DNA of 39,946 nt from an uncultured Tepidisphaeraceae bacterium (lineage in GTDB: Bacteria; Planctomycetota; Phycisphaerae; Tepidisphaerales; Tepidisphaeraceae): assembly GCA_964499005.1 (NCBI GenBank), contig CAZCKE010000001.1, forward strand, positions 1 through 39,946, written 5' to 3'. The notes below the pieces were generated by a model. It was not told where the DNA came from. It did no database searches and saw only the letters and a program-made list of their open reading frames with translations. Positions 3,001-32,201 of the stretch are shown here, piece after piece. The position numbers were made by a program, and so were the translations under genes. Position 1 is the first letter of the stretch; each line of letters starts with the position of its first letter.

Positions 3001-6000
3001 GGGAGTTTCACATTCACACCCAACGATGACGGGGTTTATGTCGTGACGCTGGTGGGAACTGCCGGCAGCGTTCAGGCGAGCAATTCCCAAACGATCAACG
3101 TGACGATGGTGGCGCCGACCGCTTCCATCATCGGATTGACTCAAACGATCACCGAAGGCAACACGGTTTATTTGGCTGCGCAAGCAAGCGACCCCAGTTC
3201 CGTTGATGCCGCGACGCTTCAATATGCCTGGACCGTGACCGCTAACGGCAACGCATTTGCCAGCGGCACCGCACAAAGCTTCTCATTTACACCGACTGAT
3301 GGCTCGGTCTACGACGTGTCTCTGACCGTCACCGATCCGGATGGCCAGTCAACGACCGTGACCGGAAGCACGCAGCCGATCCCCAAAGCGCCGATGACTC
3401 TCATCGCCGAGACAGTCGCCTCCGACACGATCAACCTCCGCTGGCAGGATGAATCGCATATCGAGGACTACTACAAGATCGAGGCTTCCAGCGACAACGG
3501 CAACACCTACGCACAGCTTGGCACAGCTTCCGTGGACATCACGCACTTTCTGGCGACCGGCTTAAATCCCGGCACGAGGTATCTGTTCCGCGTGACCGGC
3601 ATCCGCAACGGTCAAGGCACGAATATCGCCACGGCGATCGCCAGCACCGATCCTGCCGCGCTCACCGGCCTCACGGCCACGGCAGTTGCCAACAGTGATT
3701 CTCAAATTCATCTGACATGGAACGCGCCCAGCGGCTCTATCAACCCAAATATCGAAGCGATCCAGGTCGAGTATCGCTCAAACGAAGACTTCAACTACAC
3801 CCAACTTCAGCCGTTTTCTCCGACAACGACTTCAACAACGTTGACGAATCTCGACCCCAATACCGTCTATTACTTCCGTATCCGTGCCTGGACAACACCA
3901 GGTGCCTACCATGGCCCTGACTACTTGGGCAACAACGATTCAGTTAATCTCTCACCCTATTCCGCGCTCGCGACGGCCACGACAAATAATGTTTTGCCAA
4001 CGGCTCCAACAAATGTTACGGCTTCCGCTACCGGGCTGCCTGGCCAAATCCATGTCACCTGGTCAGGCGACAGCACCTATGCGGATGGATTTAATGTACG
4101 TGTTTCGACGGATGGCGGACAGAGTTTCGATCCGCCCGTGGTCACGCCCGGCCCCACTACATCAATGGTCGATTTGAACTGGTGGGATCCCCGCCAAAGC
4201 TATGTGGTCGAAGTGTCGGCATTTAATAAAGTCGGCGAATCCACATCAACTGTTTCGGGCTCAGTGACCCCTACCGCGATGGGGGCTGTCGGCAGCCTTC
4301 AGGCATCGCCGGTTTCCAATCACCAAATTCAATTGTCATGGGCGTACACACCAGCGCCATCGAGCAATTCATATTTCCCGACATTCATCATCCAAGCGAG
4401 CGTGGAAGGTGGTCCATTTGCAACGATCTGGACAACAAATGGAACCTCGTATAACGATATAAATTTGACCGCGGGGACGAGCTACACCTATCGCGTTCAA
4501 GCTCAGTACAACGGCGGTTTCTCGGACTACTCAGCATCTGCCACCGCCATCACCACCAATGCTCTTCCGTTGGATTTAAGCAATCCGAGTCTTTCCGATA
4601 CGCTCAGTTTTGGCGTCCTCAGTTTTGGCTATACGGCGCCAACGGATCTGAATCGAGACGGCATCAATGTGGAGATTTCCACCGATGGGGTGAACTATGC
4701 CCCCGCAACATTGCCCGTTTCCTTCTTCGGTGCGCCCAATAGTATTGTCGGCCTGGAACCCGGTACAACCTATTACGTCCGAGCGTATGCATACAACAGC
4801 GTGGGACGTTCGGATTATCTGTACTTCAATCCAGTCGCAACGCACGCGGTGACCAGTCCAACGATGATTAGCGCCTCTACGCCCACGGCGTCCATCGGAT
4901 ATCCGCAGGCGAATTCCAACACGCAGCTGGCGCTGCAATGGAATTATTCGCCAACACCGGGCACGAGCGAGCCTCAAAGCTTTGAAATCCAGCAACTTGC
5001 CCAGGGCGACAGCGACTACCATGACGCCGGCACCCTCCAGAACTTTAATCCATCCAACAATATTGTGACCACGCTCATCAAGAATTTAACGCCGGGGGTC
5101 AGCTACCAGTATCGGGTTCGCGCGGTCTACGCCGACTATTACAAGACGAATTGGAGCGATGCTTCGGCGCCGGTGTCAACGACAGCCCTATTGCCTTCCA
5201 TGCCCTCGAACTTGTCAGCAACGCCATCGGGCTCGACACAAGCAATTTTCAATTGGAACAGCTCTTCGCTGGTGACCGATGCCTTTAGCGTCCAGATTTC
5301 CTCCGACGGCACGAACTTCACGGATGCCGGCACAACTTTATTTGTGCCGAACGCGTCCACTTTCGGCATCCCCGTGCAGGGCCTTGCGCCATCGACGACG
5401 TATTTCTTGCGGGTCCAGGCGTTCAACAGCGTCGGCGTCTCGGGATGGACCGATGCCGTGAGCGTCACGACGGGTCCTGCGTCGAGCGGCAATGCGCCCA
5501 TCGTCCCCGTCGCTCCGAGTGCCACGACTCTCGATTCGGCAATCGCCGTGAACCCCGGCGAGATCGATTTACAGTGGACGAGCGTCGACCGGGCCACCGC
5601 CTATCTAGCGGAAATCTCCTCCGACGACACAACATTTACCCCCATCGGCCAAACATCCGGCACGAGCTACGCCGCCCGAGGCCTGACCATCTCAACGCAC
5701 TATTTCTTCCGCGTGATCGCCAGCAACGCCGGTGGCGATGCACCGCCGTCCAATGTGCTCGACGCCACCACGCCACCCTACGCAGCTCCCGCCAATTTGA
5801 CGGCAACGCCAGTCTCGCAAACACAAATCAGCCTGGCGTGGACGGAAACCAATACGGATGAAAGCGGGTTCCGGGTTGAAGAATCCACCGATGGCCTGAC
5901 ATATGCTCCGGTGAATCAGGTGAGTCATCCGCCGACCACAACGCCGTCGGATATGCGGGCCTATTTGGTGCAGGGATTGAATCCGGGCCAATTGTATTAC

Positions 6001-9000
6001 TTCCGCGTCCGTACCGTCGGACCCGGCAATGCATATGTCTCCGATGTCTCCAATGTGGCCAGCGCCGCGCCATTTGCCGTCGCGCAAGCCGCCCAGCCGA
6101 CCGGCCTGACCGTGACCGTTTTATCCAACTCCGAAATCCGCGTCCGATGGAACGACAATGCAAACAACGAGGATCACTACTCGGTCGTGCTCTACTGGAA
6201 TGGCGGGCTGGATATTCCGAACGAAACGGACGGCTCGGAGGAAAACACGATCTATGACATGCGCGAGGTCGCCTCGGACGTGAACGATGTCGTCATCGAC
6301 GACTTGCAGGGGGACACGCTCTATGAAGCGCGCGTGCACGCGACCAACTATGCCGGAGCTTCGGTGGTTTCGGACATGGTGGAAGTGCAAACACTTCCCG
6401 ATCCACCAACCGGTTTAGCCGCCGTCGCGACCTCGCCGACGACGGTTCACGTCAGTTGGAACCAGGTGCTTAGTTCCTCGGGCTATCATCTGCAACGCAG
6501 CCTTGATGGACAAAACTGGACCAGCGTCGGACCGGCGACGATCACAGACACCAGCTACGACGATACGAACGTCGGCGCCAATTACCTCTACCGTATTTCG
6601 ACGACAATGCCGGATGGCGACTCCCCGTTCAGCGCCGCGGCGGCGATATCGGAACCCAGCATTACCGATTTCAGCGCGAATAACGTCACGACGAGCGAAA
6701 TCGACCTGGCATGGACCCCGCTGAGTTCCGCGTCGAGCTACGAAATCGAACGCAGCACGGGCAACAACTTCATGTGGACGCTGCTTGCCACGGTGGATGG
6801 AAGCGCCAGCAGTTACGCCGACACTAATCTGATCACCGGAACGTCTTATTACTATCGCATACGGGCCCGCAACGCGATCGCCAGCTCGGCCTATACCAAC
6901 ATCAGCGCGATCACCATGCTGCCCACCCCGATCAATCTGGCTGGCAGCGTCTCGGCAACTTCCGCCAGCCTCAGTTGGATCAGCAGTGAAAGCGCCGTCA
7001 CTTACCTGATCCAGCAACAGATCAATGGTATCTGGCAAACCGTTTCCAGCGTGTTCAACACAAACCAAGCAACCTTCGGCGGCAGCTTCGCCCCCTCGAC
7101 GGTCTATAATTTTAGAGTCTCCGCGCGATCGGGCGGCGCCAGTTCAGATTTTTCGGATTCGCTCGCGGTCACTTCGCCGGATTTTGCCCCAACGCCGAGC
7201 GGGTTTACCGCCTCCAATCCCTCGTTCACATCGATCGATTTGTCCTGGGCCGCCAGTGCCGGCGCGCAAGATCAATTTATTCTGGAACGATCCAGCAACG
7301 GCGGGGCCTTCTCCACGATTGCTGTCCTGGATGGAAGCACCAGCGCCTTCACGGACAGCGGATTGGCTGACGGGACCTCCTACACGTACCGACTCTCGGC
7401 AAGCAATTCAGCGGGACGATCAGGCTTTACCGTGCTCAGCGCCACCACGGCTTTGGATGTACCCATTCATTTTGCCGCATCTTCCGTTACCTCTTCGGCC
7501 ATTACACTCACCTGGCAGGCGGCCAACGCCAACGCCGCTTACAATCTCTTCCAGTCCACCGATGACATCACCTGGCAGCCGCTGTCTCAACAGTCGCAGT
7601 TTGCCCGCTCGTTTGTGGTTACCGGCGCCTATCCTCCCGGCACGCCGTATTATTTCCGCATTCAAGCGTCGCTGAGCGGAATGCTCTCCGCGACGGTCGA
7701 TTTGTCGGGGACCACCCCTGCGTATCCACAGAAGCCGGCGGGGATTTCCTTAACCAATGTCGGCATGACGGGCGTCAGCATTAGCTGGACGCCCGGCTCG
7801 TCGGACGCCACGCAATTCCAAGTGCAACGCGGCATCTTCGCCAACTTCTGGCAGACGCTGGCCACAGTCGATGGCAGCGTCACATCCTATTTCGACAACT
7901 CGGTCGCTCACAATACCTCGTACAGTTACCGGATCATCGCGGTTAATGCCTTTGGACAATCGATTCCCGGCAATTCAGCCTCCATCGTCACGCCGTTGGT
8001 GGCGCCCGCGGCGCTGGCCGTGACCAGCGTCTCGGGCCATGAAACCGATCTGTCGTGGGCGCTGCCCAGCGAAGCGCTGAGCGGCCTGGATATCTACCGC
8101 TCGACCAGCGCTTCCTCGCTGGGGACGGTCATCGCGTCCATCGGGACAACGGACACCACCTATTCGGATTCAGGTCCGTTCAATTCCAATGCAACGTACT
8201 ACTATACCGTGGTTGCCAAGAGCGGATCGGTGAGCGCTGCGAGCGCGAGCGTCGCCGTCACGACGGGGAATTTCCCCCAGACTCCGACCAACGTCACCCT
8301 CGTCAACGGCAATTCGGAATATCGATTGAATTTGGCCTGGTCCGCCGTCGCGGGCGCGAGCAGTTACACGATCTATCGACGGACGGTGAGCACGCAGTGG
8401 ACCTTCATTAATACCGTCGACGGGTCGGTGCAAAGTCCCGGCTATTCCGATAGCGGGTTGGACCCCGGTCGGGCTTATGAATACCGGATCACGGCCAGCA
8501 ATGCCGCCGGCGAATCGGGATATTCCACGGTGGCGGCTTTGGCAACCTCCCTCATCGATCCGGCATCGCCTGATGGGCTGACCATCACGGCTGATCCGAA
8601 CGATGGCACGGTCCTGAACCTGACGTGGACCAATCACGCCGGCGACCAGAGCGGCTTTGAGGTGCAATCGGCCGAGTGGGGCGCCACAAACTTTGCCATG
8701 AACGATATCTATTCCTCCTCGGTGACGATCGGCCCCAGCGCCACGTCGTATCAAGCGACGGGCCTGGTCAGTGGTCAGACATATTTCTTCCGCGTGCGTG
8801 CGATCCGTCCGGATGGCCCGAGCGACTGGTCCAACGAAGCCTATGGGATCACCGCCGACCCGCAGCAGTTCGGCGGGCAATATGCCGCCGCTCCTGGCAT
8901 CGTCGGCGGCGCGCCCCTTCCCGGACCCAGCGGCTTCCTGCACCAGTACGTCGTCACCGTCAACGGCAACGACGTCTATAACTTTGTCCCGACCGCCGAC

Positions 9001-11241
9001 GTTCCTGTTTCAGGCAAGCTGGTCTTCTCCAGCGCTCCGGTCTGGGCGAGCTCGCCGGAGGATGCGATGCGGCGGGCGCTGGTGGCCGATCAAAGCTCCA
9101 TCGTCCTTCCCTCGGGGGACGGCATGGCCCCGTCGATCAACATCCCCTGGCTCGACCCGCGCTATCTGCGGCTGGAGTTCCTGTCGTTCATCGGCAATCC
9201 CGAAGGGGAATCGGGCGTGGACGCTTCCGGCGAATCCGATCTGGACGGGGCGACGGGGCATTTCCGAACGTACATTTCCTACAACAACGACTACTACAAC
9301 TGGACCATCCACCCCTGTCCGAACATCGACATTTACGAGTATTATGAGGGGACGCATCAGGAGAACGGCGTGTGGGTGCCCGACCCGTATACGCCGGCGC
9401 AGCTCGATAGCTTTACGGCGACGGATGGGAATAATTCGGGGAACAGCGTGACGGCAAGTGATGCGAATCCAGTCACGCTATATATTCCAGTAAATTATGG
9501 AGGTCGAGTATCTATTAACCTGTCTGATCAAGCAATTGCTGCATCAGATGGCGATCTCGATGATGTCTTGTGGGATGCTCGTGGAAGCAATAACGCCGTA
9601 ATTTCGTCAGGTACTTTCTCCTCTGGTCCGACAATTACACTCGATGCACCCAGCGAGGGTGACACTATCACGATTGAGGCCGGCGTCGATAGAAGCGGAA
9701 ACGATAAATTGGAAGGAACTGAAGTCACCCGAACAATCAAGGTAGTCTTTCAAAAGTTGATTCTTGCCTGGAATACTTCCGAACAAGAGAATAGCCAATT
9801 ACACGGTTTCGCTCTCGATATTGGGGGCATAACCTCTACACCGAATGAAGTATTCGACCCAACTTTAGCACTCGGTAACCAATCATTGACGATCGACTGG
9901 GGCGATGGATCGCCGGTTGACGATGGTACTGCGCCGCACTTTTTTGATGATGAAGGAGAATATCAAGTACACATTTCAGGTACGGACCCAACCGGTCGTC
10001 AATTCGTCACGTCTTTTTCAATCGATGTCGCTGATCCTGCCGAGCCTGCTGATCCGGTTGAACAGGCATCGCTCGAAAGCGGAGCACTGAGTTGGGATTC
10101 TATAAATGGGGCTGTCCGTTACGACATCTATCAAGGTGCTGATTCAAGCATTGGAGACATGACTTATGTAACCTCCGTTACTTCACCTGGGTATTCAATT
10201 CCAGACAATGGCGGCAATGGAGTCTTCTATTCCATCGTTGCTATCATGCCCGATAACACACAGCAACCTGCTGGTGACATTTTCGCGTCACCTCCGAGCA
10301 CCGCTCCGTCAAATATTGGACCAGCACCGTCGGTGCCGCCGCCATTATTTACTTATGTCGGGGTGGCAACATCAGCACAAAACGGCGCCGCAATCGCAGC
10401 TTTAAAACTACGATATGCAGCAGATCCATCAAACATCAATAATCTGCTAGTGGGAATACATGATGTGACGATTACCGATATCGGAGCTATAGTCGATTTT
10501 AATGGATCCTTTTCTTCCATTGGCAACATAAAAAAGGATGCCGCTGGAAATTATGTTCGCGAGGGAGGTTATGCAACAGCGAGAGCTTGGATGATTAGCA
10601 TGGCAGGTCACCAGCGCACGAACATACAAGATCTGGGAAACGGGACACTTACCGCTAATCTCCAAGATGGTACCAACGTCAAATTGTCTAAAGATGGGGA
10701 TTGGGGAGACGTCCTTATTACCACTTCTGCAGGAGTAGTTACTCCCGTGACATTTGAGAATCCGGTGCGAGAGACAGATTTTAGATTTGCAGGACCAGGT
10801 CAAGGAGCTCAAGGGAATATTGATGTGACGGACTTCATCAATAGTGTATTGATAGAAGAAAAAGATGCAACGGGTTTATTGAACCCATGGAATCTTAAGA
10901 ACCCGGCTGCGCCTGATCCAAAAGTTGCAGATAAGAAGAAAACGGAATTGGCATGGGCGCAAGAAAAGATTTTTAACGATACAAAAGCGCGTCTGTTAAA
11001 ATTGCAGCGAGCCGGGCAGGTCACCTATGCAGAACCTGGGAAATACGTCGGTCCGGTGACACCCCCAACTATTGATAAATACCAAGCTATAACAAAAGTG
11101 GTAATCCGATTTGTCGGTAATCCAGCCACATATGCTAATTGGTCATTTATTATTATAGCCGGCAACCAAGTTGAAGCACTGAATAATGATCCACAGCTAA
11201 AAGCGTACGGATATACGTTCTCAATCCAATGGCCATTTTAG
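1..11241 (+). CDS. Giant secreted/surface repeat protein (5' partial, more than 3,740 aa visible): FN3 array, PKD/Ig-like domains and a variable C-terminal module
   Basis: Frame 1 has no stop from nt 1 up to the TTG at 55 used by the ORF track, so the gene is cut by the window edge. The translation shows about 22-24 FN3-type modules with recurring Y-x-[YF]-R-[VI]-x-A signatures (YYFRIRA, YTYRVQA, YFFRVIA, YYYRIRA, YEYRITA). PKD-type modules carry SNDPDGDSISSW...WGDG motifs. Stop is TAG at 11239-11241. Confidence 0.95.
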   Translation, partial: GSYQVQVSIQDFNGQTSPLSTVALVNYTGATAPTAPTNFAVSAGQTNTTFSWSGGSGTNFSGFMVYGITSSNTVVTLGTTGSSTRSLTIANSSMPSTVVQAFVVAETSTFPVAYSQYSNIAAVRVNSLSVPAAPANLAATLALSSGHAVANLIWDNTSDAELGYYVQRQLHSNPGSWATIATLAADQDSYADTIPDVSKIYDYQIIAFNNKGNSSASNTVTVSCLPTVTLGSIPSATEGSGMTLTSTTSPAISGDSLSYAWSIFDQNGNPYTPSGVALNQSSLTFTPIDSGNWSVSLKATDSTISSGSQIASTTINSGNIPVAVLPPTVTISGSSSYSAGPGGYRLNVSAVYPSNDPDGDSISSWTVNWGDGVPGNPDIVTYTNIVDHIYHPYTTPNPNVTITASATDDDGTYAANLISLTVTPSVSDLSATADTHGAINVRWVYFWPGGHFDIQRSTDGATFTTISSMSADSSTNELLYTDTSGQANTHYYYRIHGTDSAGYNFYTNIASATTAAPGTYGAAPLDTIVVPVDGSSVVSNVTLLAGVHYLLQASGAFFLGGDIGRADAEYSYSPYNNTVIADDANVNYGVDINDTSNDLNKSTWWGPYNTSHVYTIDFIGTGQQLSFNLHDDNYSDNVQDNNPSPLEVQIFAEYPAAPSNLTAQYSVASQQVNLSWTDNAATETGFRIERSTDGQNFSLLQTLNSPSSGIGGTVTAADATAVLGQKYWYRVFAIGPSGFDPNAPSNVAVLSLAGPTVTLGSVPSAAEGSSMTLTSTATAANSSDTLAYAWSIFDAGTLYTPSGVALNQSSLTFTPNDPGNWWATLAVTETQTGATTTASTGTFAVANLPPTVSISGASTVAQSVAYTLSLSAVYPSNDPDGDSISSWQIDWGDGTSSNPDVQTVSGNPSSVTHVYQVQPASGVITATATDDDGTYAANPLHIQVTAPPAVTIVGAPSTSPEGTAITLTGTTSNFPTAPSFLWSVTKDGQAYTSGLGPTNQGSFTFTPNDDGVYVVTLVGTAGSVQASNSQTINVTMVAPTASIIGLTQTITEGNTVYLAAQASDPSSVDAATLQYAWTVTANGNAFASGTAQSFSFTPTDGSVYDVSLTVTDPDGQSTTVTGSTQPIPKAPMTLIAETVASDTINLRWQDESHIEDYYKIEASSDNGNTYAQLGTASVDITHFLATGLNPGTRYLFRVTGIRNGQGTNIATAIASTDPAALTGLTATAVANSDSQIHLTWNAPSGSINPNIEAIQVEYRSNEDFNYTQLQPFSPTTTSTTLTNLDPNTVYYFRIRAWTTPGAYHGPDYLGNNDSVNLSPYSALATATTNNVLPTAPTNVTASATGLPGQIHVTWSGDSTYADGFNVRVSTDGGQSFDPPVVTPGPTTSMVDLNWWDPRQSYVVEVSAFNKVGESTSTVSGSVTPTAMGAVGSLQASPVSNHQIQLSWAYTPAPSSNSYFPTFIIQASVEGGPFATIWTTNGTSYNDINLTAGTSYTYRVQAQYNGGFSDYSASATAITTNALPLDLSNPSLSDTLSFGVLSFGYTAPTDLNRDGINVEISTDGVNYAPATLPVSFFGAPNSIVGLEPGTTYYVRAYAYNSVGRSDYLYFNPVATHAVTSPTMISASTPTASIGYPQANSNTQLALQWNYSPTPGTSEPQSFEIQQLAQGDSDYHDAGTLQNFNPSNNIVTTLIKNLTPGVSYQYRVRAVYADYYKTNWSDASAPVSTTALLPSMPSNLSATPSGSTQAIFNWNSSSLVTDAFSVQISSDGTNFTDAGTTLFVPNASTFGIPVQGLAPSTTYFLRVQAFNSVGVSGWTDAVSVTTGPASSGNAPIVPVAPSATTLDSAIAVNPGEIDLQWTSVDRATAYLAEISSDDTTFTPIGQTSGTSYAARGLTISTHYFFRVIASNAGGDAPPSNVLDATTPPYAAPANLTATPVSQTQISLAWTETNTDESGFRVEESTDGLTYAPVNQVSHPPTTTPSDMRAYLVQGLNPGQLYYFRVRTVGPGNAYVSDVSNVASAAPFAVAQAAQPTGLTVTVLSNSEIRVRWNDNANNEDHYSVVLYWNGGLDIPNETDGSEENTIYDMREVASDVNDVVIDDLQGDTLYEARVHATNYAGASVVSDMVEVQTLPDPPTGLAAVATSPTTVHVSWNQVLSSSGYHLQRSLDGQNWTSVGPATITDTSYDDTNVGANYLYRISTTMPDGDSPFSAAAAISEPSITDFSANNVTTSEIDLAWTPLSSASSYEIERSTGNNFMWTLLATVDGSASSYADTNLITGTSYYYRIRARNAIASSAYTNISAITMLPTPINLAGSVSATSASLSWISSESAVTYLIQQQINGIWQTVSSVFNTNQATFGGSFAPSTVYNFRVSARSGGASSDFSDSLAVTSPDFAPTPSGFTASNPSFTSIDLSWAASAGAQDQFILERSSNGGAFSTIAVLDGSTSAFTDSGLADGTSYTYRLSASNSAGRSGFTVLSATTALDVPIHFAASSVTSSAITLTWQAANANAAYNLFQSTDDITWQPLSQQSQFARSFVVTGAYPPGTPYYFRIQASLSGMLSATVDLSGTTPAYPQKPAGISLTNVGMTGVSISWTPGSSDATQFQVQRGIFANFWQTLATVDGSVTSYFDNSVAHNTSYSYRIIAVNAFGQSIPGNSASIVTPLVAPAALAVTSVSGHETDLSWALPSEALSGLDIYRSTSASSLGTVIASIGTTDTTYSDSGPFNSNATYYYTVVAKSGSVSAASASVAVTTGNFPQTPTNVTLVNGNSEYRLNLAWSAVAGASSYTIYRRTVSTQWTFINTVDGSVQSPGYSDSGLDPGRAYEYRITASNAAGESGYSTVAALATSLIDPASPDGLTITADPNDGTVLNLTWTNHAGDQSGFEVQSAEWGATNFAMNDIYSSSVTIGPSATSYQATGLVSGQTYFFRVRAIRPDGPSDWSNEAYGITADPQQFGGQYAAAPGIVGGAPLPGPSGFLHQYVVTVNGNDVYNFVPTADVPVSGKLVFSSAPVWASSPEDAMRRALVADQSSIVLPSGDGMAPSINIPWLDPRYLRLEFLSFIGNPEGESGVDASGESDLDGATGHFRTYISYNNDYYNWTIHPCPNIDIYEYYEGTHQENGVWVPDPYTPAQLDSFTATDGNNSGNSVTASDANPVTLYIPVNYGGRVSINLSDQAIAASDGDLDDVLWDARGSNNAVISSGTFSSGPTITLDAPSEGDTITIEAGVDRSGNDKLEGTEVTRTIKVVFQKLILAWNTSEQENSQLHGFALDIGGITSTPNEVFDPTLALGNQSLTIDWGDGSPVDDGTAPHFFDDEGEYQVHISGTDPTGRQFVTSFSIDVADPAEPADPVEQASLESGALSWDSINGAVRYDIYQGADSSIGDMTYVTSVTSPGYSIPDNGGNGVFYSIVAIMPDNTQQPAGDIFASPPSTAPSNIGPAPSVPPPLFTYVGVATSAQNGAAIAALKLRYAADPSNINNLLVGIHDVTITDIGAIVDFNGSFSSIGNIKKDAAGNYVREGGYATARAWMISMAGHQRTNIQDLGNGTLTANLQDGTNVKLSKDGDWGDVLITTSAGVVTPVTFENPVRETDFRFAGPGQGAQGNIDVTDFINSVLIEEKDATGLLNPWNLKNPAAPDPKVADKKKTELAWAQEKIFNDTKARLLKLQRAGQVTYAEPGKYVGPVTPPTIDKYQAITKVVIRFVGNPATYANWSFIIIAGNQVEALNNDPQLKAYGYTFSIQWPF
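670..1269 (+). repeat. Internal segmental duplication, copy A (pair of PKD/Ig-like domains)
   Basis: Encodes LPTVTLGSIPSATEGSGMTLTS...YAWSIFD...ALNQSSLTFTP...PPTVTISG...VYPSNDPDGDSISSWTVNWGDG...ATDDDGTYAAN, collinear with copy B. Shared nucleotide runs include gcctggtcgatcttcgat and gacagcatcagctcatgg. Confidence 0.85.
2260..2832 (+). repeat. Internal segmental duplication, copy B (pair of PKD/Ig-like domains)
   Basis: Encodes GPTVTLGSVPSAAEGSSMTLTS...YAWSIFD...ALNQSSLTFTP...PPTVSISG...VYPSNDPDGDSISSWQIDWGDG...ATDDDGTYAAN, collinear with 670-1269. Confidence 0.85.
3370..8840 (+). repeat. Uninterrupted array of about 20 diverged FN3-type modules (protein-level repeats of roughly 90-100 aa) inside the giant CDS
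   Basis: Each unit has an 'L(T/S)A...(I/L)xLxW' start and a 'Y(Y/F)(F/Y)R(V/I)xAxN..G.S..S' end. Units are diverged at nucleotide level, so this is not a simple tandem DNA repeat. Confidence 0.8.
8950..9047 (+). repeat. Junction segment of the giant gene that recurs at 15333-15430
   Basis: gtcgtcaccgtcaacggcaacgacgtctat...ccggtctgggcg (VVTVNGNDVYNFVPTADVPVSGKLVFSSAPVWA) aligns without gaps to 15333-15430. About four fifths of the bases look identical by eye. Confidence 0.85.
9406..9750 (+). repeat. Conserved roughly 115-aa Ig-like 'pre-tip' module of the giant gene (AT-rich version), homologous to 12183-12518
   Basis: DSFTATDGNNSGNSVTAS...[17 protein letters not shown]...SSGTFSSGPTITL...EAGVDRSGNDKLEGTEVTRTI aligns with the start of the 12117 ORF. 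About half the residues are identical by eye, including long identical runs. Synonymous positions differ strongly (A/T here, G/C there). Confidence 0.85.
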
Positions 11242-11260
11242 ATTTATAAATTTTCTTATT

Positions 11261-11575
11261 ATGTCAATAAGTTTAACCATAAGTTGGGCGGACGGGCGCT
11301 TTGAGCAAATTCCGGTGGCTGGACAGCTATCTGCCAGTACAAGCTGGCGAGACCTTGGACTAGAATTGGGATTAAAATGGTTGCCACTTTTTCACGCTTG
11401 GATACCAGTGGAACCGGAAAATCTGGACGCACTAATCAGCGAGGTAGAAAGATTTCGTGACGCTGCTTCAAAGCGAGGCGACAAATGGAAGTCTATTACA
11501 GAAAGCGCGGATCGACTTACCACAGCATTGCGTGATTTGAAAGATAAAAGCGGCTGGGAAGCATCAATTGGTTGA
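11261..11575 (+). CDS. Small soluble hypothetical protein (104 aa); candidate cognate immunity/antidote for the giant protein's C-terminal tip
   Basis: ATG lies 19 nt after the giant gene's stop on the same strand. It shares the AT-rich composition of the giant gene's tip. No hydrophobic segment and no recognisable motif. Position is the only functional evidence. Confidence 0.6.
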   Translation: MSISLTISWADGRFEQIPVAGQLSASTSWRDLGLELGLKWLPLFHAWIPVEPENLDALISEVERFRDAASKRGDKWKSITESADRLTTALRDLKDKSGWEASIG

Positions 11576-11643
11576 TCACAGTTTATTGGGCCGTGATGCT
11601 TATCGATGTGAAGCGAGTGTGTTGATAAATCTCTTAAAACCCC

Positions 11644-12108
11644 ATGATTACGACCAAGTTACGTAATATCGCGCGATCCTTGGTGAATTTGAGCTTTGGC
11701 ACACTTAGCGCCATATCGCTGTGCATAGTGATAGTGTTGGTTGTTATTCGTCTTAGTGGACGAACATGGACTTACTCGATGCCTCTAGCAACAACTCCGC
11801 AGGCATATCACCTTAACTCGTCCGTAGATGTCGAAGTCAATTATTCTGGCGGTATAGCCATCGAGCAAGATTACCTACCCCACATATTTGGCAGAAGGAT
11901 CCCATATTTCGCGGCTATCGTTTTCACAACAATTGTCCCGATTCTTTACGCGATTTTTTACTGGTATCGCGCGCGCGAGAGAAGATATCGCCTTGCAAGT
12001 AAAGTTTGCGCCATTTGCGGCTACGACCTCCGCGCTACCCCAGACCGCTGTCCGGAATGCGGCGCCATTCCCAAAAGCTCCATCAAGCCATCTCTGCCCA
12101 TGTTTTGA
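11644..12108 (+). CDS. Two-pass membrane protein with C-terminal CxxC...CxxC zinc ribbon ([19 protein letters not shown])
   Basis: Two hydrophobic spans (about aa 14-36 and 86-108) flank a roughly 50-aa loop. A basic stretch (RARERRYR) and a 4-Cys ribbon follow. It has the same architecture as 14693-15328 and a nearly identical C-terminal 30 aa. Confidence 0.75.
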
Positions 12109-12116
12109 TTGGCGGT

Positions 12117-14696
12117 ATGGTAAAAAATCTCATCCGCGCATTGCGGCCAATCCTGAGCGTCGATCTGACGGCGCCAGAGACGGATAGCTTGACGGGAACA
12201 GATAGCACCAATTCAAATAATAGCGTGACGGCGGAAGGAACGCAGGAGCTGTACGTGCTGGTGAATGCCAATGGGAACGCGACGGTGAAGTTCTCGGACA
12301 GTGCGATCGCGGCTTCGGACGGGGACACCGATGACGTGCTGTGGCGCGTATTGCAGGGCAATACGACCATCGGCTCGGGGACGTTCTCCAGCGGGGCGAC
12401 TATCACGCTCAATCCGGCAACCCAGGGAACGGAGTTCATCGCCGAGGCGGGCGTGGACATGTCGGGCAATGACAAGCTGGAAGAGCCGGAGGTGACCGAG
12501 ACGATTCGGATTCACCTCACGCATTTCGGCGGCATCACCGCATTTCGTACCGATGGGAAATTTGGTCAGGCTGTCACACGAGCTATTCAACAGACCAATG
12601 ATCCGACGAAATACGTCGTACTTGTCAACGACAACTTTGACCAAACGCTTGATCAGAGCCAAGCGGACAACGCGTTACCTACAGCACCGATTCAAAATGA
12701 TCAGATGCAACTCGATCAAAACGGTAATCCGCTCGATCCTGACTTTGGACACATTACGCTGCACCAGCTCCCGCAGGGGTTCATTGGCGGAACAGTAACT
12801 TTGCTACTATCCGACCCAAGTGCGGTAAAGCTCTTTGATAAAAATGGCCAGGCGCTCACCTCCGGCGATCTGACCCTCAATCTGTCAAATCCCAGCGGCT
12901 ATCTTGCTGGCCTGTTGTCAGGCGACGTAGATATCTGGTTTGAGGGGATGCACACGAGTCCAGATTTCAGTTTCACGATTTCCTATAATGAGCCTGCGGT
13001 AAGCCAATATTCCCAAGATGTGGTGCATCTGCTCATCGCCGACTGGCAGTTCGTCGGCTCCGATGGCAATCGGCTCACCAACGATGTCTCTACAGTTTCC
13101 GAGGAAACGTTGACGGATGAAGCTAACGGCAATCTGGATTCACCGACTATTCCTAACGAAGACAAGTTCAAAGTTCTTTTAGACGGCTTGCCCAGCACCG
13201 CACTCCAATCGCTTCAATTCAACTCAATATCGGGCCCAACGGACAGCTTCCTAGACACATTTTCGGGGACTTCATCCTCAACCTCATCGAATAATTTCAC
13301 GGTGATGTATGGTGTTCCCGATGGTTTAAGTCAGTTTTCGACGAGCCAGCGGAGCTCCATTTTAAGTGCCCTCGGAGTTAACGCCATTGCCGCGAATACA
13401 GTTCGAGTAATCGCGCAATTGGCGAATGATGTTTTACAACAGGAGATCAAAGCTGACCCCATGCGCGTAACATTTGTCAGCGGAGAAGATCCAACGGATG
13501 GGACTATTGAAACAAGGAGATCAATTGACAATAACGAGCCCTTTTACATGAAGGGCTATATGCTGGAACTGGAAGTCAACAATAAAGTCGGCACTCAGGT
13601 CCAATGGTCATTTCAGAAGATAGGGCATGGCAACCAGGATTTCGGGGCTTTTTATGACGGCCATGATTGGGTGGATTATGCGGATAACCACAAATTGAAC
13701 GCCAAACCGACGGATGGCCTCGTAAATTGGCGATCTGACTTTGATGCTAACGGCGATATCAATGATGAATATTCCATTACGGCCAAATACACCAAGCCGG
13801 ATGGCACGCCGGGATTCTCGACTCTTCATTTAAAGAGCCGGCTTCTGGACCCAAATGACCCCAACGCCAGTGCGAAATACCACACCGACGCGGATATGGC
13901 GCAGAGAGCGCTCATCCAGGATTTCGGCCTCGACAAAGGGCGATTAAGCTCTTATCGCATCGGACAATATGATAAGGGCTCCCAAAATGGCTGGTACGTG
14001 TCGTCGCGGCAGATGAATGTGCGTCAATGGTCCGCTATCGCAGACGAGGTCTCGAATTTCCGCCATTTCGCGCTCAACAAGGCATTTGATCCGACGCTTC
14101 TTCTGGACACAGTTACGGGCATTTGGAATGAGTTTTCCAAGATTCTTGCCGCACCACTCCCTAATAAAGTGGACCAGAATAACGCACAATTCGGAAATTG
14201 GATCACTCAGGCATTAACGGCCAGCGGACTTACGGCACCAAATGGAGCGTCCGTGACCAGTGAACAAATCTTGCGGGCTTTGATCACGCATGAGAGCGGA
14301 GGAACGCATTCCTATGATTTGCAAGCGCCGCTTGCCGCTAACTACATTCAGGTCGGGACACAAAACAACGGAGCTGGGGCCAATTTGCACCAATTAACTG
14401 ACTGGGGGCTTGGCTTCGCGAAAGTCCAACCATATAACGACAATGGCTTGAATCTGTATGACCCCTATCAAAATATCTTACGTGGAGCACAAATGTTCGC
14501 GGCTGCCCTTGCAAACCAGGGAATAAATGAAGTGGGAGACAATAGGATCTGGATGGCCTATTACTACTATAATTCGGGGCACATCGAAAATGGGTCAATA
14601 GATGGCGCGGGAGGAGCTCGTGCAGTAAATAGATTCGGTGCCGCAGATCACGCCGACGCTTTCTTTAGTGCTTTAGGGCTTCAGCCTCCCCAATGA
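12117..14696 (+). CDS. Orphan C-terminal module of the giant-protein family (about 859 aa): conserved Ig-like pre-tip module, unknown middle, lytic-transglycosylase (SLT/lysozyme-like) C-terminus
   Basis: The ORF-track start at 12006 overlaps the preceding gene. The first in-frame ATG after that gene's stop is 12117. The N-terminus has no signal peptide and aligns to aa about 3118-3232 of the giant protein. The C-terminus carries SLT-type motifs in order: LITHESGG (catalytic E-S), [33 protein letters not shown]. The stop overlaps the next start (caATGAac). Confidence 0.8.
12183..12518 (+). repeat. Conserved Ig-like pre-tip module, GC-rich copy (homolog of 9406-9750)
   Basis: [18 protein letters not shown]...[17 protein letters not shown]...[13 protein letters not shown]...[21 protein letters not shown]. 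Similarity to the giant protein stops right after this block. Confidence 0.85.
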
Positions 14697-15328
14697 ACGT
14701 ACCAACGAACCAAAAATGGAAACGACGATTTACGCGAACGGCACTTATTCTCGATATAGTTCTCTTGCTTTCTGCCGTTACAGCTTGGACGATTAGCAAT
14801 TTTTTCGCCTTCGGTATAATACAGCGAGAGTACGAAATATCTGTTGCTAAAAATTCTCTATTCGATGACGATGGCAATGAATTCGTTTCTCGCTATCGCG
14901 GCTTGGATGTCTCCATGGGGGTCATCATATACTTTGTTTACATTGATCGACTGTCATTAACGCACGTTCCGAGCGACACCAAGCTGCAGGTTTCCGGAAC
15001 CCATTTCGTGCTTGATAAAAGACGCAATTCGCCAAGCCTACTCAGAAAAGGCATTTTGGGGATCGAAGTACGTAATGAACCACCGCATCAAGCAGGACAG
15101 CTCGGCAGTATCGGCTCCTCATTATTGATTTGCGTGCCGTTGTGGTTTTTCTGCATTCTTTTTAGCGTGTGGCCATTACGAATTTTGGTCGGGTTCGTGC
15201 GTCGCCGCGACTACGCCGCCATTCGCTGCGAGACTTGCGGTTACGACCTGCGCGCCACTCCTGATCGTTGTCCGGAGTGCGGCGCTGTTCCCGAACATCC
15301 AATCAAACCCTCATCGTCGATAACTTGA
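14693..15328 (+). CDS. Two-pass membrane protein with C-terminal zinc ribbon ([19 protein letters not shown]); candidate immunity partner of the SLT-like orphan module
   Basis: ATGA start/stop overlap with the upstream module. TM1 is about aa 16-42, followed by a roughly 100-aa loop and TM2 at about aa 141-170, then RRRDY and a 4-Cys ribbon. The C-terminal 30 aa nearly match those of 11644-12108 (DNA 15227-15316 versus 12007-12096). Confidence 0.75.
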
Positions 15329-15332
15329 TTGA

Positions 15333-15443
15333 GTCGTGACCGTCAACGGCACCGACGTCTACCACTTCTTCCCCGATGCCACCGTTCCCGTTTCGGGCAC
15401 GCTGGTTTTCTCCAGCGATCCGGTCTGGCGTAGTGTAAAATAA
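15333..15443 (+). pseudogene. Third orphan fragment of the giant-gene junction region, truncated by IS insertion
   Basis: It starts 5 nt after the previous stop and encodes VVTVNGTDVYHFFPDATVPVSGTLVFSSDPVW, homologous to 8950-9047. Homology ends at about 15430, where the sequence runs into tgtaaaataattc (IS end) and a stop at 15441-15443. Confidence 0.8.
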
Positions 15444-16707
15444 TTCATCCGCGTCTCATGCGGCCTCCTTGTAATAGAATTTCAGCAGTCCACCCAACCG
15501 TTCCCGGCACTGCACCGGTCCATCGCGAGGATAATCAGTGTCGGTGAGCGCGGGAAACAGGAGCCGATTCTGCTTACCTTGATGCGGCCGCTCGGAATGG
15601 TAATGCTCGATGTACTGCGTGACGGCGTGGCGCAGGGGCGCTTCGCCGAAGAAGATCATCCGGTCCAGGCACTCCGATTTGATCGAGCGGACAAAACGCT
15701 CCGCGAACGCATTGAGATTGGGACTTTGCGGCGGCAGAGCCAGCGGCTCAATGCCGGCGGCGCGGAAGATCATGTCAAAGCCACTGGAGAATTTCGTATC
15801 CCGGTCGTGCAGAAGATATCGGCAGCGGGAGAGCAGATCGCAGCCGCTCATGGTGAGGTTGCGTGCTGCCTGCTTCATCCACGCGTTGGTGGGATTGGCG
15901 GTGATGCCGCCGAAATAAACTTTGCGGCTGGCGACGTGTATGAAGAACAGGACGTAATACGTGACCAACCCGCAGGCGGTCCAGACTTCGGTGGTGAAAA
16001 AGTCCGTGGCCAGCAGACAATCGGCGTGGGACTTGATGAAGTCGGACCAGTCGGTCTTCCTTTTTCGCATCGGCACCGGGTCGATGCCATGTTCTTCGAG
16101 GATGTTTTTGACGGTCTGATGGCTGAGTCCATGGCCGATGGCAGCCAGCGCGCCGGTGATCCGCCGATAACCCCAAGCTGGATTTTCGTTGGCCAATCGG
16201 AGGACTTGCATCACGGCGGCCGGATCGGTCGGCGGCCGACCGGGGACGGCGGCTGCCCGGCGGTCGGAGGTGTCGAACTTTCGGGCCACGAGTTGCCGAT
16301 GCCAACGAAGGATCGTATCCGGCGTGACGATGGAGGCGACGTCCTGGAGGAGTTTGCGGCCGAGCTTCTTGCCGATCGTGGCCAGTGTGGCGCGTTGGGC
16401 GTCGTTCAATCGCCGTCGGCCGGAGAGTTGATCGCGGAGGATTTTGTTCTCGGCGGTCAGGTATTCGATTTTCAATTGAAGCTGATGGTCAATGCGGCCG
16501 GCGACCCAGGCGAGGATTTTTTCCCAGCCCGTGGAATGGGATTGAGGCATCGGGTGAATGTAACGGTGTCGGCGGGATTCTAAAAAGAGAGATCGGCAGG
16601 AAAACCGCCAAGAGATTTTGGGGCAGATTTGGGGCAAAACGGCCTCCAGAAACAGTCCAGAGGCAGTTCAACGCCAGTTCGCACTCAGTTCATAAGTCCC
16701 GTTTACA
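15431..16707 (-). mobile_element. Insertion sequence with single rve/DDE transposase (IS481-like); boundaries approximate
   Basis: The left boundary is where homology to the giant gene breaks (about 15430), followed by TGTAAA. The proposed right end is the complementary TTTACA at 16702-16707. The terminal inverted repeat is weak beyond 6 nt and I found no target-site duplication. Confidence 0.55.
15456..16550 (-). CDS. DDE transposase / integrase core (rve) domain protein with N-terminal HTH region
   Basis: rve-type landmarks in order: LLATDFF (D), LLHDRDTKF (D), NAFAERFVRSIKSE (E), then YNSERPHQG-like HYHSERPHQG. I prefer the ATG at 16550 (MPQSHSTGWEK). The ORF track extends to 16637 with an implausible Cys/Arg-rich leader. 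Confidence 0.9.
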   Translation of the reverse strand: MPQSHSTGWEKILAWVAGRIDHQLQLKIEYLTAENKILRDQLSGRRRLNDAQRATLATIGKKLGRKLLQDVASIVTPDTILRWHRQLVARKFDTSDRRAAAVPGRPPTDPAAVMQVLRLANENPAWGYRRITGALAAIGHGLSHQTVKNILEEHGIDPVPMRKRKTDWSDFIKSHADCLLATDFFTTEVWTACGLVTYYVLFFIHVASRKVYFGGITANPTNAWMKQAARNLTMSGCDLLSRCRYLLHDRDTKFSSGFDMIFRAAGIEPLALPPQSPNLNAFAERFVRSIKSECLDRMIFFGEAPLRHAVTQYIEHYHSERPHQGKQNRLLFPALTDTDYPRDGPVQCRERLGGLLKFYYKEAA

Positions 16708-16895
16708 AGGGCGTTAAGGCTCGATTTTTAGGTAATAGCGAAGGTTCCGACCTTGGTTCGGGACCAAGAGGTCGTAAAACGATACTCACCATCATCACAC
16801 CGCAATCATTTGCGTAGTTGTCGCGAACGGCCACAAAAGTTGCTGTCATGTGGCCGACCTGGATAGATTCCCTCCACCCATCTGCCAAGGAACAC

Positions 16896-17654
16896 ATGTC
16901 AGACGCAACGAACTCCGTGGCCCGGCGCGCCAAGCCCACCGAACTCCTCTCCCACTGGCCCAAACTGATCGAGAACCTCAGCTTCTCTCCGCAGGAGTTC
17001 TACTCGCGTATCGAAAAAGCCCTGGCCGACCGTCAGGTTCCCGACCTGCAAACCTCACGAGTGGATTGGAAGGAAGGCGGCGTGCTTTCGGCCCGCCGCG
17101 AATACCTGCGCCTCCAGCGCGAGCGGCTGATCTTCGACATCTGCGGCGCTCCCTTCGGCACCGGTTTTTTCGTCTCAATCTGGTGCGGCGAGCGGCCCTT
17201 GAGGCTGGGGCACCTGATCCGAGCCCTGATCTTGGTGGGAAGCGGAGCGGTGACGTGGTTTGGGATACTGCAATTCACGCCCCGCTCCACGTTTTATGAA
17301 ATGCGGCGCATGGGCATCGATCCGGGACATGCGCTCATCGCCATCACGGCCGCCGTCGTCCTGGTGGCCACCTTCCTGATCGTGCTGCTGGGCCCCAGGC
17401 TCGATAACATCCTGATCCACACGCCTGTGATCGGATACTTCTACGAGCGCTACTTCCGAAAACTCACCTACTACCGCGTGGACCGGATGTGCATGTATCA
17501 ACAGGCTGTGCATGCGGCGGTCATGCAAATCATCGACGAGATCACCAAATCCCAGGGCATCCAACCCCTCTCGGAACTGGAACGCCGGCCGATCACCAGA
17601 GAACCGGTCATGAGGGAACTGTTCCAGCAAGCCGGTTCCAATGGGCACGGCTGA
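16896..17654 (+). CDS. Hypothetical membrane protein (about 252 aa from ATG 16896; ORF open from 16818)
   Basis: A soluble N-terminal roughly 100 aa (SFSPQEFYSRIEKALADRQVPDL...) is followed by 2-3 hydrophobic spans (GFFVSIWCG, LILVGSGAVTWFGILQF, ALIAITAAVVLVATFLIVLLGP) and a roughly 90-aa tail. Its stop overlaps the next gene by 14 nt (ATGGGCACGGCTGA). Start codon is uncertain (16818 TTG, 16848 ATG or 16896 ATG). Confidence 0.7.
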   Translation: MSDATNSVARRAKPTELLSHWPKLIENLSFSPQEFYSRIEKALADRQVPDLQTSRVDWKEGGVLSARREYLRLQRERLIFDICGAPFGTGFFVSIWCGERPLRLGHLIRALILVGSGAVTWFGILQFTPRSTFYEMRRMGIDPGHALIAITAAVVLVATFLIVLLGPRLDNILIHTPVIGYFYERYFRKLTYYRVDRMCMYQQAVHAAVMQIIDEITKSQGIQPLSELERRPITREPVMRELFQQAGSNGHG

Positions 17655-20600: not shown

Positions 20601-20760
20601 AGTCCAGCAATTGACCCAGGAGAAGATCGTGCGGGGCTACAAGATCAAAACCAGCTTCAAGGTCATGGATGAAGCGGACGGGGACATTCGCCGGCAGGCC
20701 GTTTCTCAGACGGTGGCCAAGGCGATCAAGCGTTTGCAGGATCGCAAGGCCAAGAAATAA
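17641..20760 (+). CDS. Large P-loop NTPase of the TraD/VirD4/TraG-HerA/FtsK type (1039 aa) with unknown roughly 400-aa N-domain and possible PD-(D/E)xK-like C-terminal domain
   Basis: Walker A GASGTGKST at 18907-18933. Walker B hhhhDE in FWLYIDEFQNF at about 19624-19653, followed by RKYRLGLVPAHQELHQL (coupling-protein/TraG-D_C-like Q-x-x-x-QL). After a Pro-rich linker comes GRGGPEHKYL...GVDVAL...IACEICITT...NVQKCL (20233-20505), which resembles a restriction-endonuclease-fold core. Confidence 0.85.
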   Translation: MGTAEPPATSVLSPAQQLAQQFYDWELRGRGWLMWDRPVEPEPPFQPFFDHVIAPVDGDDGRKHTLLSGLIDWLHQKVTGQGNNTSAQTIEESPGEFEPIELAEPSDLVELRISLPQNLDVSQEAAEQFLLSLSTVRRPVAFELIGLPETMIVQFACEGDDAAHLEQQLRAIFPDVTVSVHAGLLQEYWQEPENAETVIAEFGLAREFMLPLAMPGFSVDPLTGIAGALVDVREDEIALLQILFQPVRHPWAQSVLRSVTFSDGTPLFEGMRDFVKQGRNKVSRPLYGAVIRACCQSPEGSRTWDMVRHVSGALSVLSDAQGNELIPLDNDNYDPTDHEHDVLFRRSRRCGMLLNSEELTSLVHLPSASVRIPKLRGQAKKTKPVPPMVLGHQTVLGINEHAGRSQSVTMSPDQRSKHLHLIGASGTGKSTLLLNLIIQDINKGDGVAVLDPHGDLVDAVLQRIPPQRRGDVVLFDPGDEDYPVGFNILSAHSELEKNLLSSDLVAVFRRFSTSWGDQMNAVLGNAIIAFLESERGGTLVDLRRFLVEAKFRKEFLSSVRDPEIVYYWAKEFPLLSGRAQAPVLTRLDAFLRPKLIRYMVGQKQSKLDLGQVMDNGGILLARLSHGAIGEENAQLLGTMLVSKLHQMALGRQRIAETDRKYFWLYIDEFQNFATPSMAAILTGARKYRLGLVPAHQELHQLTSKTPEVASAVMSNAFTRVCFRLGDEDAKKLAGGFASFEPIDLQNLSTGEAICRVERAELDFNLRTLPLAPVDEQTAATARQEAITASRQRYAVPRANVEAELCRSPGDEEAGVQEAKVWEKPDQNVDIKLPEPVLAPPSTPVGPKPVPRPQKVTSDVMIEPPPQGRGGPEHKYLQQLIKQYAEGLGFKASIEENILGGKGVDVALTKCDTSIACEICITTDDAHELGNVQKCLTAGYKHVAVISPSANRLKSLEKAISPQLADDQRSRVKFFAPEELLRFIQQLEVQQLTQEKIVRGYKIKTSFKVMDEADGDIRRQAVSQTVAKAIKRLQDRKAKK

Positions 20761-20801
20761 CTTCCTCACCCAATAAAAATTCAAAAGTAGAGAGATTTTG
20801 C

Positions 20802-20853
20802 TGGCATCTGGAATGCCAATCTGCAAAATGGCAACGCAATGGAGGTGTTGCCA
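20802..20853 (+). promoter_or_regulatory. Two adjacent TGGCA/TGCCA inverted repeats immediately upstream of (and touching) the recombinase start codon
   Basis: TGGCAT-ctgga-ATGCCA (20802-20818) and TGGCAAC-gcaatggaggt-GTTGCCA (20829-20853, ending in the ATG). This could be an operator, a recombinase site or a translation-occluding hairpin. The first also has sigma54-like GG/GC spacing. Confidence 0.3.
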
Positions 20854-26127: not shown

Positions 26128-26477
26128 TTCTCGACCTCCTCAAAAAGGCCTGGTTCCCATCCCCAGGCAGCAAGTTCATCGGGAATTGTGGTGAGCTTCA
26201 CAAGAGAAGAAGTCTGGGTAGACAGGGATTTTGGGGTAAAATTAATGGGGTTTATGGGGGCAGTGATGGCAGCGCTAGTCGCCCGGAATGTGGGGGCATA
26301 GTGCAACTTATGGGGCCTGGGCAAGCTATATAAGGGTGAGAAACTGGGAATCGGGTCGCTTCATGTCGAAATGTGGTGTATGGTGAGAGTCACGCGTCGG
26401 GACGGGGACAGGCCTGGCCAGTGTCAGGCATATATCCGCTCGATAGCGTCGATTCGCCGAATGGGAGCAATAACCAA

Positions 26478-27788: not shown

Positions 27789-27803
27789 AAATAACGGATT
27801 CCA

Positions 27804-31153: not shown

Positions 31154-31167
31154 GGTAAGACTCAATA

Positions 31168-32199: not shown

Positions 32200-32201
32200 C
32201 A

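Follow-up and report, generated by a model that had tools for sequence, protein, structure and literature searches.

The subject of this analysis is a stretch of 39,946 nucleotides from an uncultured Tepidisphaeraceae bacterium (Planctomycetota; contig CAZCKE010000001.1 of assembly GCA_964499005.1), which is called the window below. Its first 15 kb hold the 3' part of a giant gene encoding FN3 and PKD domains, followed on the same strand by small genes, by a gene that repeats one module of the giant protein (orphan 1) and by a short fragment that repeats another (orphan 2), where an insertion sequence (IS) ends the series. We estimate a probability of about 70% that this locus is a polymorphic effector/immunity cassette array carried on a giant FN3/PKD stalk; the toxicity of the exchangeable C-terminal tips and the immunity provided by the genes next to them are predictions from sequence. 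A preliminary description of the same DNA had recognised the organisation of polymorphic toxin loci here. In architecture and comparative genomics this was borne out by a mosaic of base composition, by about 30 different tails behind one junction module, by orphans in two other loci (L016 and L017), by the pairing of tips with partner genes and by an SLT-like domain in the second tip.

The giant protein contains about 15 or more FN3 domains as well as PKD domains and ends in a non-repeat C-terminal region. After the last FN3 domain come a short linker, a segment designated domain A, a junction module designated B, PKD-like and FN3-like segments and a terminal part of ~310 aa (coordinates of all features are collected in Table 1). 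Only fn3, PKD and Ig-type families were matched by Pfam in the visible 3,746 aa, and the reported lack of VENN, Rhs, PAAR, LXG and TPS features in this part was confirmed by Pfam and a motif scan. The three small genes lie exactly where they had been placed, including the ATGA in which the start of small gene 3 (14693) overlaps the stop of orphan 1 (14694-14696). A gap of 8 nt to the preceding stop, previously ascribed to the second orphan, was found in front of the ATG at 12117 that opens the orphan with tip 2; the fragment at 15333 instead follows the stop of 14693-15328 after 4 nt. A scan of 11000-15600 for promoters and terminators gave signals no better than those of shuffled sequences.

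The giant gene recurs in two places downstream. When the residues encoded by nt 8500-11238 were compared by BLASTP with the open reading frame (ORF) 12006-14696, one significant high-scoring segment pair was obtained. It joins the B module at 9391-9745 to 12168-12521, with 64/118 identical aa (54%, E=4e-28), and no significant similarity was found downstream of it. The copy occupies residues 18-135 of the 859 aa of orphan 1, an uninterrupted ORF of 2.58 kb. All identical runs that had been listed for this repeat are present and the two proteins do become unrelated behind it, with the correction that homology sets in at 9391/12168, not at 9406/12183. Synonymous sites are saturated between the two B modules (pS 0.87) at a pN of 0.33, which argues that the modules are old, independently maintained and constrained at the protein level rather than products of a recent local duplication. 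The second repeat concerns the start of domain A: 8950-9045 and 15333-15428 share 82% nucleotide identity over 96 nt (blastn, E=2e-23) and 76% over 34 aa (tblastn, E=2e-9). That this segment is cut by an IS also proved correct, as the copy ends at 15428-15430 beside a minus-strand rve/HTH transposase gene. In blastn and tblastn searches the rest of orphan 2 did not resume anywhere in the window.

Base composition changes along the array in step with these repeats. The G+C content at third codon positions (GC3) is 0.70 in the stalk and 0.82 in domain A, drops to 0.2-0.45 from ~9455 and ranges from 0.37 to 0.52 in tip 1 and the two small genes behind it. It is 0.76-0.87 in the B module of orphan 1, ~0.5 in the same gene after ~12520 and 0.84 in the orphan 2 fragment. 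The break at ~9455 is located within the B module, 64 nt past the start of its homology with orphan 1. This mosaic fits a successive displacement by incoming cassettes. Two contigs that Logan assembled from run SRR12313480 agree with the window at 100% identity: L001 corresponds to 10327-12522 and spans the junction of tip 1, small genes and orphan 1, and L018 corresponds to 13141-15809 and spans the junction of tip 2, small gene, orphan 2 and IS. Since these assemblies are independent, the two junctions are not assembly artefacts.

P0008 (4504 aa) was the only full-length homolog of the giant gene to be found. It consists of an N-terminal '...FEILEPRIMLTG' motif, beta-helix repeats, PKD domains, FN3 repeats, domain A and the B module, and it is collinear with aa 1121-3270 of the giant protein (to nt ~9810) at 44% identity. 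A windowed comparison gives 40-50% identity across A and B, but no more than 10-25% past aa ~3250-3270 (nt ~9750-9810); the two tails show no BLAST similarity. The stop of P0008 is overlapped by a 330-aa ankyrin-repeat gene. A collapse of identity behind the equivalent of 9406-9750, together with a different downstream gene, had been predicted for homologs of the giant gene, and P0008 behaves in this way, with noise past nt ~9810 and the ankyrin gene next to it. The N-terminal architectures of the two proteins are not collinear. Two PKD-containing blocks of the giant protein (aa 226-430 and 755-944, window ~676-1290 and ~2263-2832) both align with one region of P0008 (aa 996-1185), which indicates that a duplication took place within the N-terminal part of the stalk.

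An exhaustive search with a hidden Markov model (HMM) of the junction alignment retrieved 59 cluster representatives that contain the B module. Across these proteins the last B module is typically found 200-450 aa from the C-terminus, and some have 2-4 tandem copies. Of the tails behind the module, 49 are at least 100 aa long, and these form about 30 mutually unrelated groups, none with a Pfam assignment. In some family members the C-terminal end of the module matches Pfam DUF7151 (PF23657): the cut-off of 27.2 bits is passed by P0006, P0009, P0025 and P0013 (28-56 bits), and the match extends over no more than the final ~22 residues. The giant protein's own B module scores weakly against this family (13.1 bits, E=0.097), and the copy in orphan 1 gives no score. 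At the N-terminus of twelve B-module proteins, P0008 among them, a regular expression matched the motif (A/P)LExRxLL. The corresponding Pfam family PF07595 has been described as a planctomycete-specific cell-surface signal (PMC8567305). It was scored by one B-module protein, P0025, and the N-termini of P0008 and of the L017 main gene received no Pfam score for it.

The same layout was found in two further loci, neither of which contains an IS. L016 opens with the end of a main gene that has two B modules and an HExxH-containing tip. Behind it come two small genes, of which the first is HEAT-like and has a signal peptide and the other has two transmembrane (TM) segments, then the orphan P0053 and an ankyrin gene. 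P0053 (634 aa) has its start midway through a B module, is 70% identical in nucleotides to the main gene over 223 nt and carries a tip of the P0008 type. In L017 a complete 628-aa main gene with the N-terminus 'VEALEQRQLLS' is followed by a gene for a 522-aa signal-peptide protein and by the orphan P0006, which is preceded by stop codons. This orphan has one block of 409 nt (79%) and nothing else in common with its main gene, and it matches gene 1 of L016 over 401 nt at 90% before the two diverge completely.

The gene behind a tip co-varies with the tip, as far as can be told from genomic association. A P0008-type tip stands before an ankyrin gene in two loci (P0008 itself and P0053 in L016), and HEAT and leucine-rich-repeat (LRR) proteins occur as partners of other tips. 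All three are recognised classes of immunity proteins, also in planctomycetes (PMC3482391). The family of tip 2 was found on three carriers, namely the B-module orphan of the window, P0002, which is without B, and proteins with poly-serine linkers (L013 and the Schlesneria metagenome-assembled genome (MAG) of L015). In every locus for which DNA was available, seven in number, a partner gene follows the tip-2 domain directly. In L008, L010, L011/L012, L014 and L015 it encodes a weakly conserved signal-peptide protein of 334-375 aa; in the window and in L013 it encodes a protein with two TM segments and a C-terminal zinc ribbon, and L013 has the same 4-nt overlap. In L015 a paralog of the tip-2 carrier has the same N-terminus, another C-terminal domain and an LRR partner.

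Small genes 2 and 3 of the window both encode such zinc-ribbon proteins, which are alike only in their last ~38 aa (68%) and for which hydropathy and charge predict a topology with the N-terminus inside, the loop outside and the C-terminus inside. The motif was not found elsewhere in the window. At the nucleotide level, the coding ends 12007-12075 and 15227-15295 are 79.7% identical over 69 nt and the remaining parts of the genes are unrelated. With a conserved module at the 5' end and conserved zinc-ribbon 3' ends, each cassette is bracketed on both sides, and to judge from these alignments the 3' segment could serve as a second recombination handle.

Tip 2 is the better defined of the two tips. 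A focused profile search found 12 further members of its last two domains. The family has invariant Glu, His, Asp and Gln-Pro positions, the Glu being present in 14/14 members. An AlphaFold model of tip 2 on the family alignment reached a pLDDT of 77 and a pTM of 0.76; a single-sequence model of the whole of orphan 1 had a pLDDT of 33, and no reading is based on it. With the tip 2 model the best Foldseek matches in the PDB were to the lytic transglycosylase MltF (probability 0.96-0.99, E=7e-3), and SLT-domain proteins were also among the structure matches in the viral library. When the tip-2 profile was aligned by hhalign with a profile of five SLT members (Slt70, MltC, MltD, MltE and MltF of E. 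coli K-12), a score of 32.2 was obtained over 130 columns (P=6e-4), as compared with 10-16.6 for 21 reversed or column-shuffled controls. In this alignment the catalytic Glu-Ser, DPxxNI and YNxG are in register, and the equivalent of GLMQ is a divergent 'GLGFAKVQP'. The comparison with Slt70 alone was uninformative (probability 0.5). Searches by sequence only, against Pfam with tip 2 and against the PDB with tip 2 and the family profile, returned no match. From the structural model and the profile alignment, tip 2 is probably a divergent peptidoglycan-cleaving domain.

The profile-HMM and structure searches that had been recommended for both tips were productive for tip 2, as a remote SLT-like domain, and gave no assignable fold or family for tip 1. 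When 8950-11238 was used in a word-indexed homology search, nothing but the window's own orphan was retrieved, and a sequence search of the PDB with tip 1 returned nothing beyond a PKD match to ColH. Small gene 1 was assigned to no family in our searches; it was found together with tip 1 in three other short contigs.

Table 1. Features of the cassette array in the window
Feature	Position	Strand	Remarks
Giant carrier gene	1-11241	+	Frame 1 open from nt 1, stop 11239-11241; 5'-truncated by window edge; at least 3,746 aa
Domain A (first post-stalk segment of giant)	8950-9390	+	GC3 0.82, native; first 96 nt repeated in orphan 2; conserved in P0008
Junction (B) module of giant	9391-9750	+	~115-120 aa, ends in GVDxSGNDKLExxEV; GC3 falls at about 9455 within the module
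Tip 1	9751-11238	+	PKD-like ~9884-10000, FN3-like ~10050-10300, terminal ~310 aa; GC3 0.37-0.41
Small gene 1	11261-11575	+	104 aa, soluble, no TM segment; candidate partner/immunity gene of tip 1
Small gene 2	11644-12108	+	154 aa, two TM segments (12-43, 86-108), C-terminal zinc ribbon
Orphan 1 (carries tip 2)	12117-14696	+	Intact 859-aa ORF with own ATG, without signal peptide or stalk
Orphan 1: B module	12168-12521	+	GC3 0.76-0.87
Orphan 1: 'HRTGG...DPTKY...PSGYLAGL...WLEG' module	~12534-13460	+	~300 aa, common to P0002-P0005 and P0017
Orphan 1: Ig-like beta domain	13461-13840	+	
Orphan 1: SLT/lysozyme-like helical domain	13842-14693	+	Invariant Glu codon 14292-14294
Small gene 3	14693-15328	+	211 aa, TM segments 13-43 and 137-170 with ~90-aa loop between, same C-terminal zinc ribbon as small gene 2
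Orphan 2 fragment	15333-15428	+	32 codons homologous to domain A start (VVTVNG...PVW); GC3 0.84; IS-truncated
Insertion sequence ending array	15430-16700 (right end nominal)	-	rve_3/HTH_32/HTH_21 transposase ORF 15456-16637

We propose that the giant FN3/PKD protein would form a long surface stalk with an exchangeable tip at its distal C-terminus. Because its homologs begin with a planctomycete-specific signal (...LExRxLLS/T...), the giant protein would presumably be exported by the same route. Tips would be swapped by recombination within handles that lie past the stalk, that is in domain A (8950-9390) and above all in the B module (9391-9750). An incoming cassette would arrive with a handle copy of its own, with a new tip and with one or more partner genes, and the former tip and partner would be shifted downstream to become an orphan without a promoter. 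The order and the mechanism of two such events are what we infer for the window. In the first, an older tip, of which the 32 codons at 15333 would be the remnant, may have been displaced by a cassette of A, B, tip 2 and the gene 14693-15328. In the second, the low-GC cassette of B, tip 1 and the genes 11261-11575 and 11644-12108 would have recombined in or just before B, displacing B and tip 2. As a divergent SLT/lysozyme-like domain, tip 2 would most likely cleave peptidoglycan in the periplasm of a target cell. The product of small gene 3, which has two TM segments, a loop predicted to be extracytoplasmic and a zinc ribbon predicted to lie in the cytoplasm, would shield the producing cell and its kin from tip 2. 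Judged by gene content and organisation, a function of the locus as a weapon is likely.

Several observations weigh against such a cassette array. The N-terminus of the giant protein, and with it the secretion signal, lies outside the window. The single full-length homolog that was found is only 44% identical, and when 185,579 species-representative genomes and the JGI metagenomes were scanned with the A+B alignment, none was added. The independently assembled stretches do not reach the low-GC break at ~9455. Neither a releasing peptidase nor a known pre-toxin motif is present, and none of the tips and partners could be placed in a curated toxin or immunity family. For tip 1 there is neither a homolog outside the window's own population nor a fold assignment. 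The link of tip 2 to SLT domains is remote: Foldseek gave nothing at 1e-3 or below, the hhalign probability was 28%, and there was no match to the PDB at the sequence level. The loops of the zinc-ribbon partners in the window and in L013 are not detectably similar. Finally, orphan 1 is intact with an ATG of its own and could be an independently expressed gene instead of a silent spare.

This last point also suits the alternative that survives best, which we regard as unlikely: that the giant protein is a modular fibrillar adhesin or surface enzyme with exchangeable binding or polymer-degrading tips for attachment, feeding or predation. The downstream genes would then be accessory (folding, anchoring or regulation) and the orphans spare or independently expressed tips. 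The stalk does consist of adhesin-type domains only, the tips contain Ig, PKD or FN3 sub-domains, no known toxin family was detected, and giant proteins of the PVC group have been proposed to bind and degrade the walls of other cells, also by SLT domains (bioRxiv 10.1101/2023.11.21.568195). However, an adhesin tip would have no need of a cognate membrane or periplasmic partner, and each type of tip has its own tightly coupled one, with 4-nt overlaps and of classes that are used as immunity proteins (ankyrin, HEAT, LRR, signal-peptide and membrane proteins). Tip and partner are moreover displaced as one unit, and the tips include SLT-like and DUF900 alpha/beta hydrolase domains and an HExxH motif, enzyme classes typical of antibacterial effectors.

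It is quite improbable that the downstream copies are mere debris, left when a second, paralogous giant gene was wrecked by IS and other mobile elements without any exchange of cassettes. The truncation of the 15333 fragment by an IS, the missing remainder of this copy and the TraG/VirD4-like ATPase and serine recombinase genes immediately downstream could be understood in this way. Against this, orphan 1 is uninterrupted over 2.58 kb with a stop that overlaps the start of the next gene, the copies start at domain boundaries in the order expected of nested displacements, the breaks in composition coincide with the shared module, and the layout recurs in unrelated loci without IS. A resemblance of 24 nt at 12115-12138 to the IS-proximal 15430-15453 (79%) would also speak for debris; it is within the chance range of the same comparison, and we rejected these nucleotides as the relic of an IS end, as no inverted repeat or second copy was found and the orientation does not fit. 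A metagenome assembly chimera, in which reads of different organisms were joined at the shared module, is very improbable: the window appears to be metagenome-derived, exact matches of its genes were found only in short metagenome contigs and the sharpest break (~9455) lies inside the repeated module without independent coverage, but the two independent assemblies are identical to the window also across the break in composition at ~12520, the reading frame is kept through 9455, and P0008 is collinear across this point to ~9810.

The interpretation as an effector/immunity array places the locus close to the polymorphic toxin systems (CdiA-CT/CdiI, Rhs/WapA and MafB; PMC3482391). Shared with these are a conserved carrier with a hypervariable C-terminus, a break of similarity at a conserved junction, an adjacent downstream cognate gene, orphan cassettes whose 5' part is homologous to the main gene, a foreign base composition of the tips, and ankyrin, HEAT and LRR partners. 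In contrast, the carrier is an FN3/PKD stalk and not FHA, RHS/YD, MafB_N, LXG or PAAR/VgrG; the junction is a module of ~115 aa, which we call folded, with a DUF7151-type motif, and not VENN, PT-HINT or DPxGL; the presumed export signal is the planctomycete-specific LExRxLL, with no releasing peptidase present; and neither the tips nor the two-TM zinc-ribbon partner have a match among the listed Tox and Imm families. In the 2012 catalogue of these systems by Zhang, Aravind and co-workers, the toxins of planctomycetes are on carriers of the RHS or Sec type, and FN3 is nowhere mentioned (PMC3482391). No RHS match by Pfam and no DPxGL motif were found in the visible giant protein. Systems of contact-dependent inhibition (CDI) resemble the locus in a very long, filamentous exoprotein with a C-terminal tip, a downstream partner gene and orphan pairs that keep a stretch of the pre-toxin region. 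Of their features (TPS, FHA, VENN and CdiB), none was detected by Pfam in the visible 3,746 aa or in P0008, there is no VENN motif, and the window has no CdiB-like gene.

The Tge/Tgi and Tse/Tsi pairs that belong to type VI secretion systems (T6SS) are peptidoglycan-hydrolase effectors with periplasmic immunity proteins. They are similar to tip 2 and its partners in a lysozyme/SLT-like domain with a conserved Glu and in partners predicted to face the periplasm, by a signal peptide or by a loop between TM segments. The locus differs from them in that it has no T6SS context, a remote SLT relation and new partner families. With fibrillar and RTX adhesins and the giant PVC-group proteins (bioRxiv 10.1101/2023.11.21.568195; PMC10952558) it shares a stalk of Ig-like repeats, distal modules and the shuffling of tip domains, but those proteins have not been described with tip-specific downstream partners or orphan tip/partner cassettes. 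The preprint on the giant PVC-group proteins proposes adhesion and cell-wall degradation, and not cassette exchange or immunity (bioRxiv 10.1101/2023.11.21.568195). Our literature searches found no description of this FN3 carrier, of the junction module or DUF7151, or of the zinc-ribbon partners. We tentatively suggest, as a possibility somewhat short of even odds, an undescribed planctomycete type of polymorphic effector: stalks of dozens of FN3 domains, exported by LExRxLL, would present interchangeable antibacterial tips at their far ends, exchange would take place at a DUF7151-type junction and perhaps also at the zinc-ribbon 3' segment, two-TM zinc-ribbon proteins would provide self-protection, and antagonism would be contact-dependent, on an adhesin-like scaffold and without any of the known secretion-system carriers.

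Some further observations concern the modules and loci met in these searches. The ~300-aa HRTGG/DPTKY module of orphan 1 has no Pfam assignment and occurs in proteins with differing N- and C-terminal parts, such as P0005, which ends in DUF2515, and a protein in which a DUF900 alpha/beta hydrolase domain follows it (L011, 3379-5235). It may be a second kind of pre-tip module. A possible likeness of this 'HRTGG...DPTKY...WLEG' module to the PAD middle domain had no support from Pfam and was not used. The poly-serine proteins of L015 (4761-6869 and 9101-11239; Schlesneria sp. MAG, JAYVOX010000541.1) and L013 (2166-3929) have a short conserved N-terminus and a linker of 150-330 aa. Their C-terminal domains differ, one being of the tip-2 type, and each has its own partner (LRR, 375-aa signal-peptide or two-TM zinc-ribbon protein), so that they appear to be another type of polymorphic carrier. 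Within a low-GC metagenome locus (L011, 64-10188), genes for a thrombospondin-type-3-like repeat protein, the DUF900 alpha/beta hydrolase protein and two paralogous membrane-anchored proteins of 344 and 358 aa are followed by one for a 657-aa protein that ends in a tip-2-type domain and by that of its 334-aa partner. The locus resembles an effector/immunity array, in a lineage other than that of the window.

The IS is directly followed by genes for a two-TM protein of 278 aa (16818-17654), a 1039-aa coupling ATPase similar to TraG/TrwB/VirD4 (17641-20760) and a large serine recombinase (20853-22652). The GC3 of 16818-22652 is native-like (0.69), and the three genes together resemble a portion of an integrative or conjugative element next to the cassette array. 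The minus strand of 24175-26127 codes for a protein of 650 aa that combines a right-handed beta-helix with PKD domains and is probably another surface protein; in P0008, beta-helix repeats occur close to the N-terminus. A polysaccharide biosynthesis cluster occupies 26373-37643, with a UDP-glucose/GDP-mannose dehydrogenase, a protein similar to Wzy and O-antigen ligases, a Wzx-type flippase, three family-2 glycosyltransferases, a DUF218 protein and two GNAT (Acetyltransf_6) proteins.

Planctomycetota have an unusual cell envelope and unusual secretion biology, and their interbacterial weapons have hardly been studied. The B module is a practical handle to search for them: with it, about 30 C-terminal domains have already been retrieved that are unrelated and unannotated and have partner genes linked to them, and these tails and partners make up a list of candidate toxins and immunity proteins. 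If confirmed, the array would stand for a new type of carrier (the giant FN3 stalk) and would add a recombination handle, several effector folds and a candidate immunity family, all of them new. It would then also mean that cassette displacement of the kind known from CdiA, Rhs and MafB has evolved on an adhesin-like scaffold.

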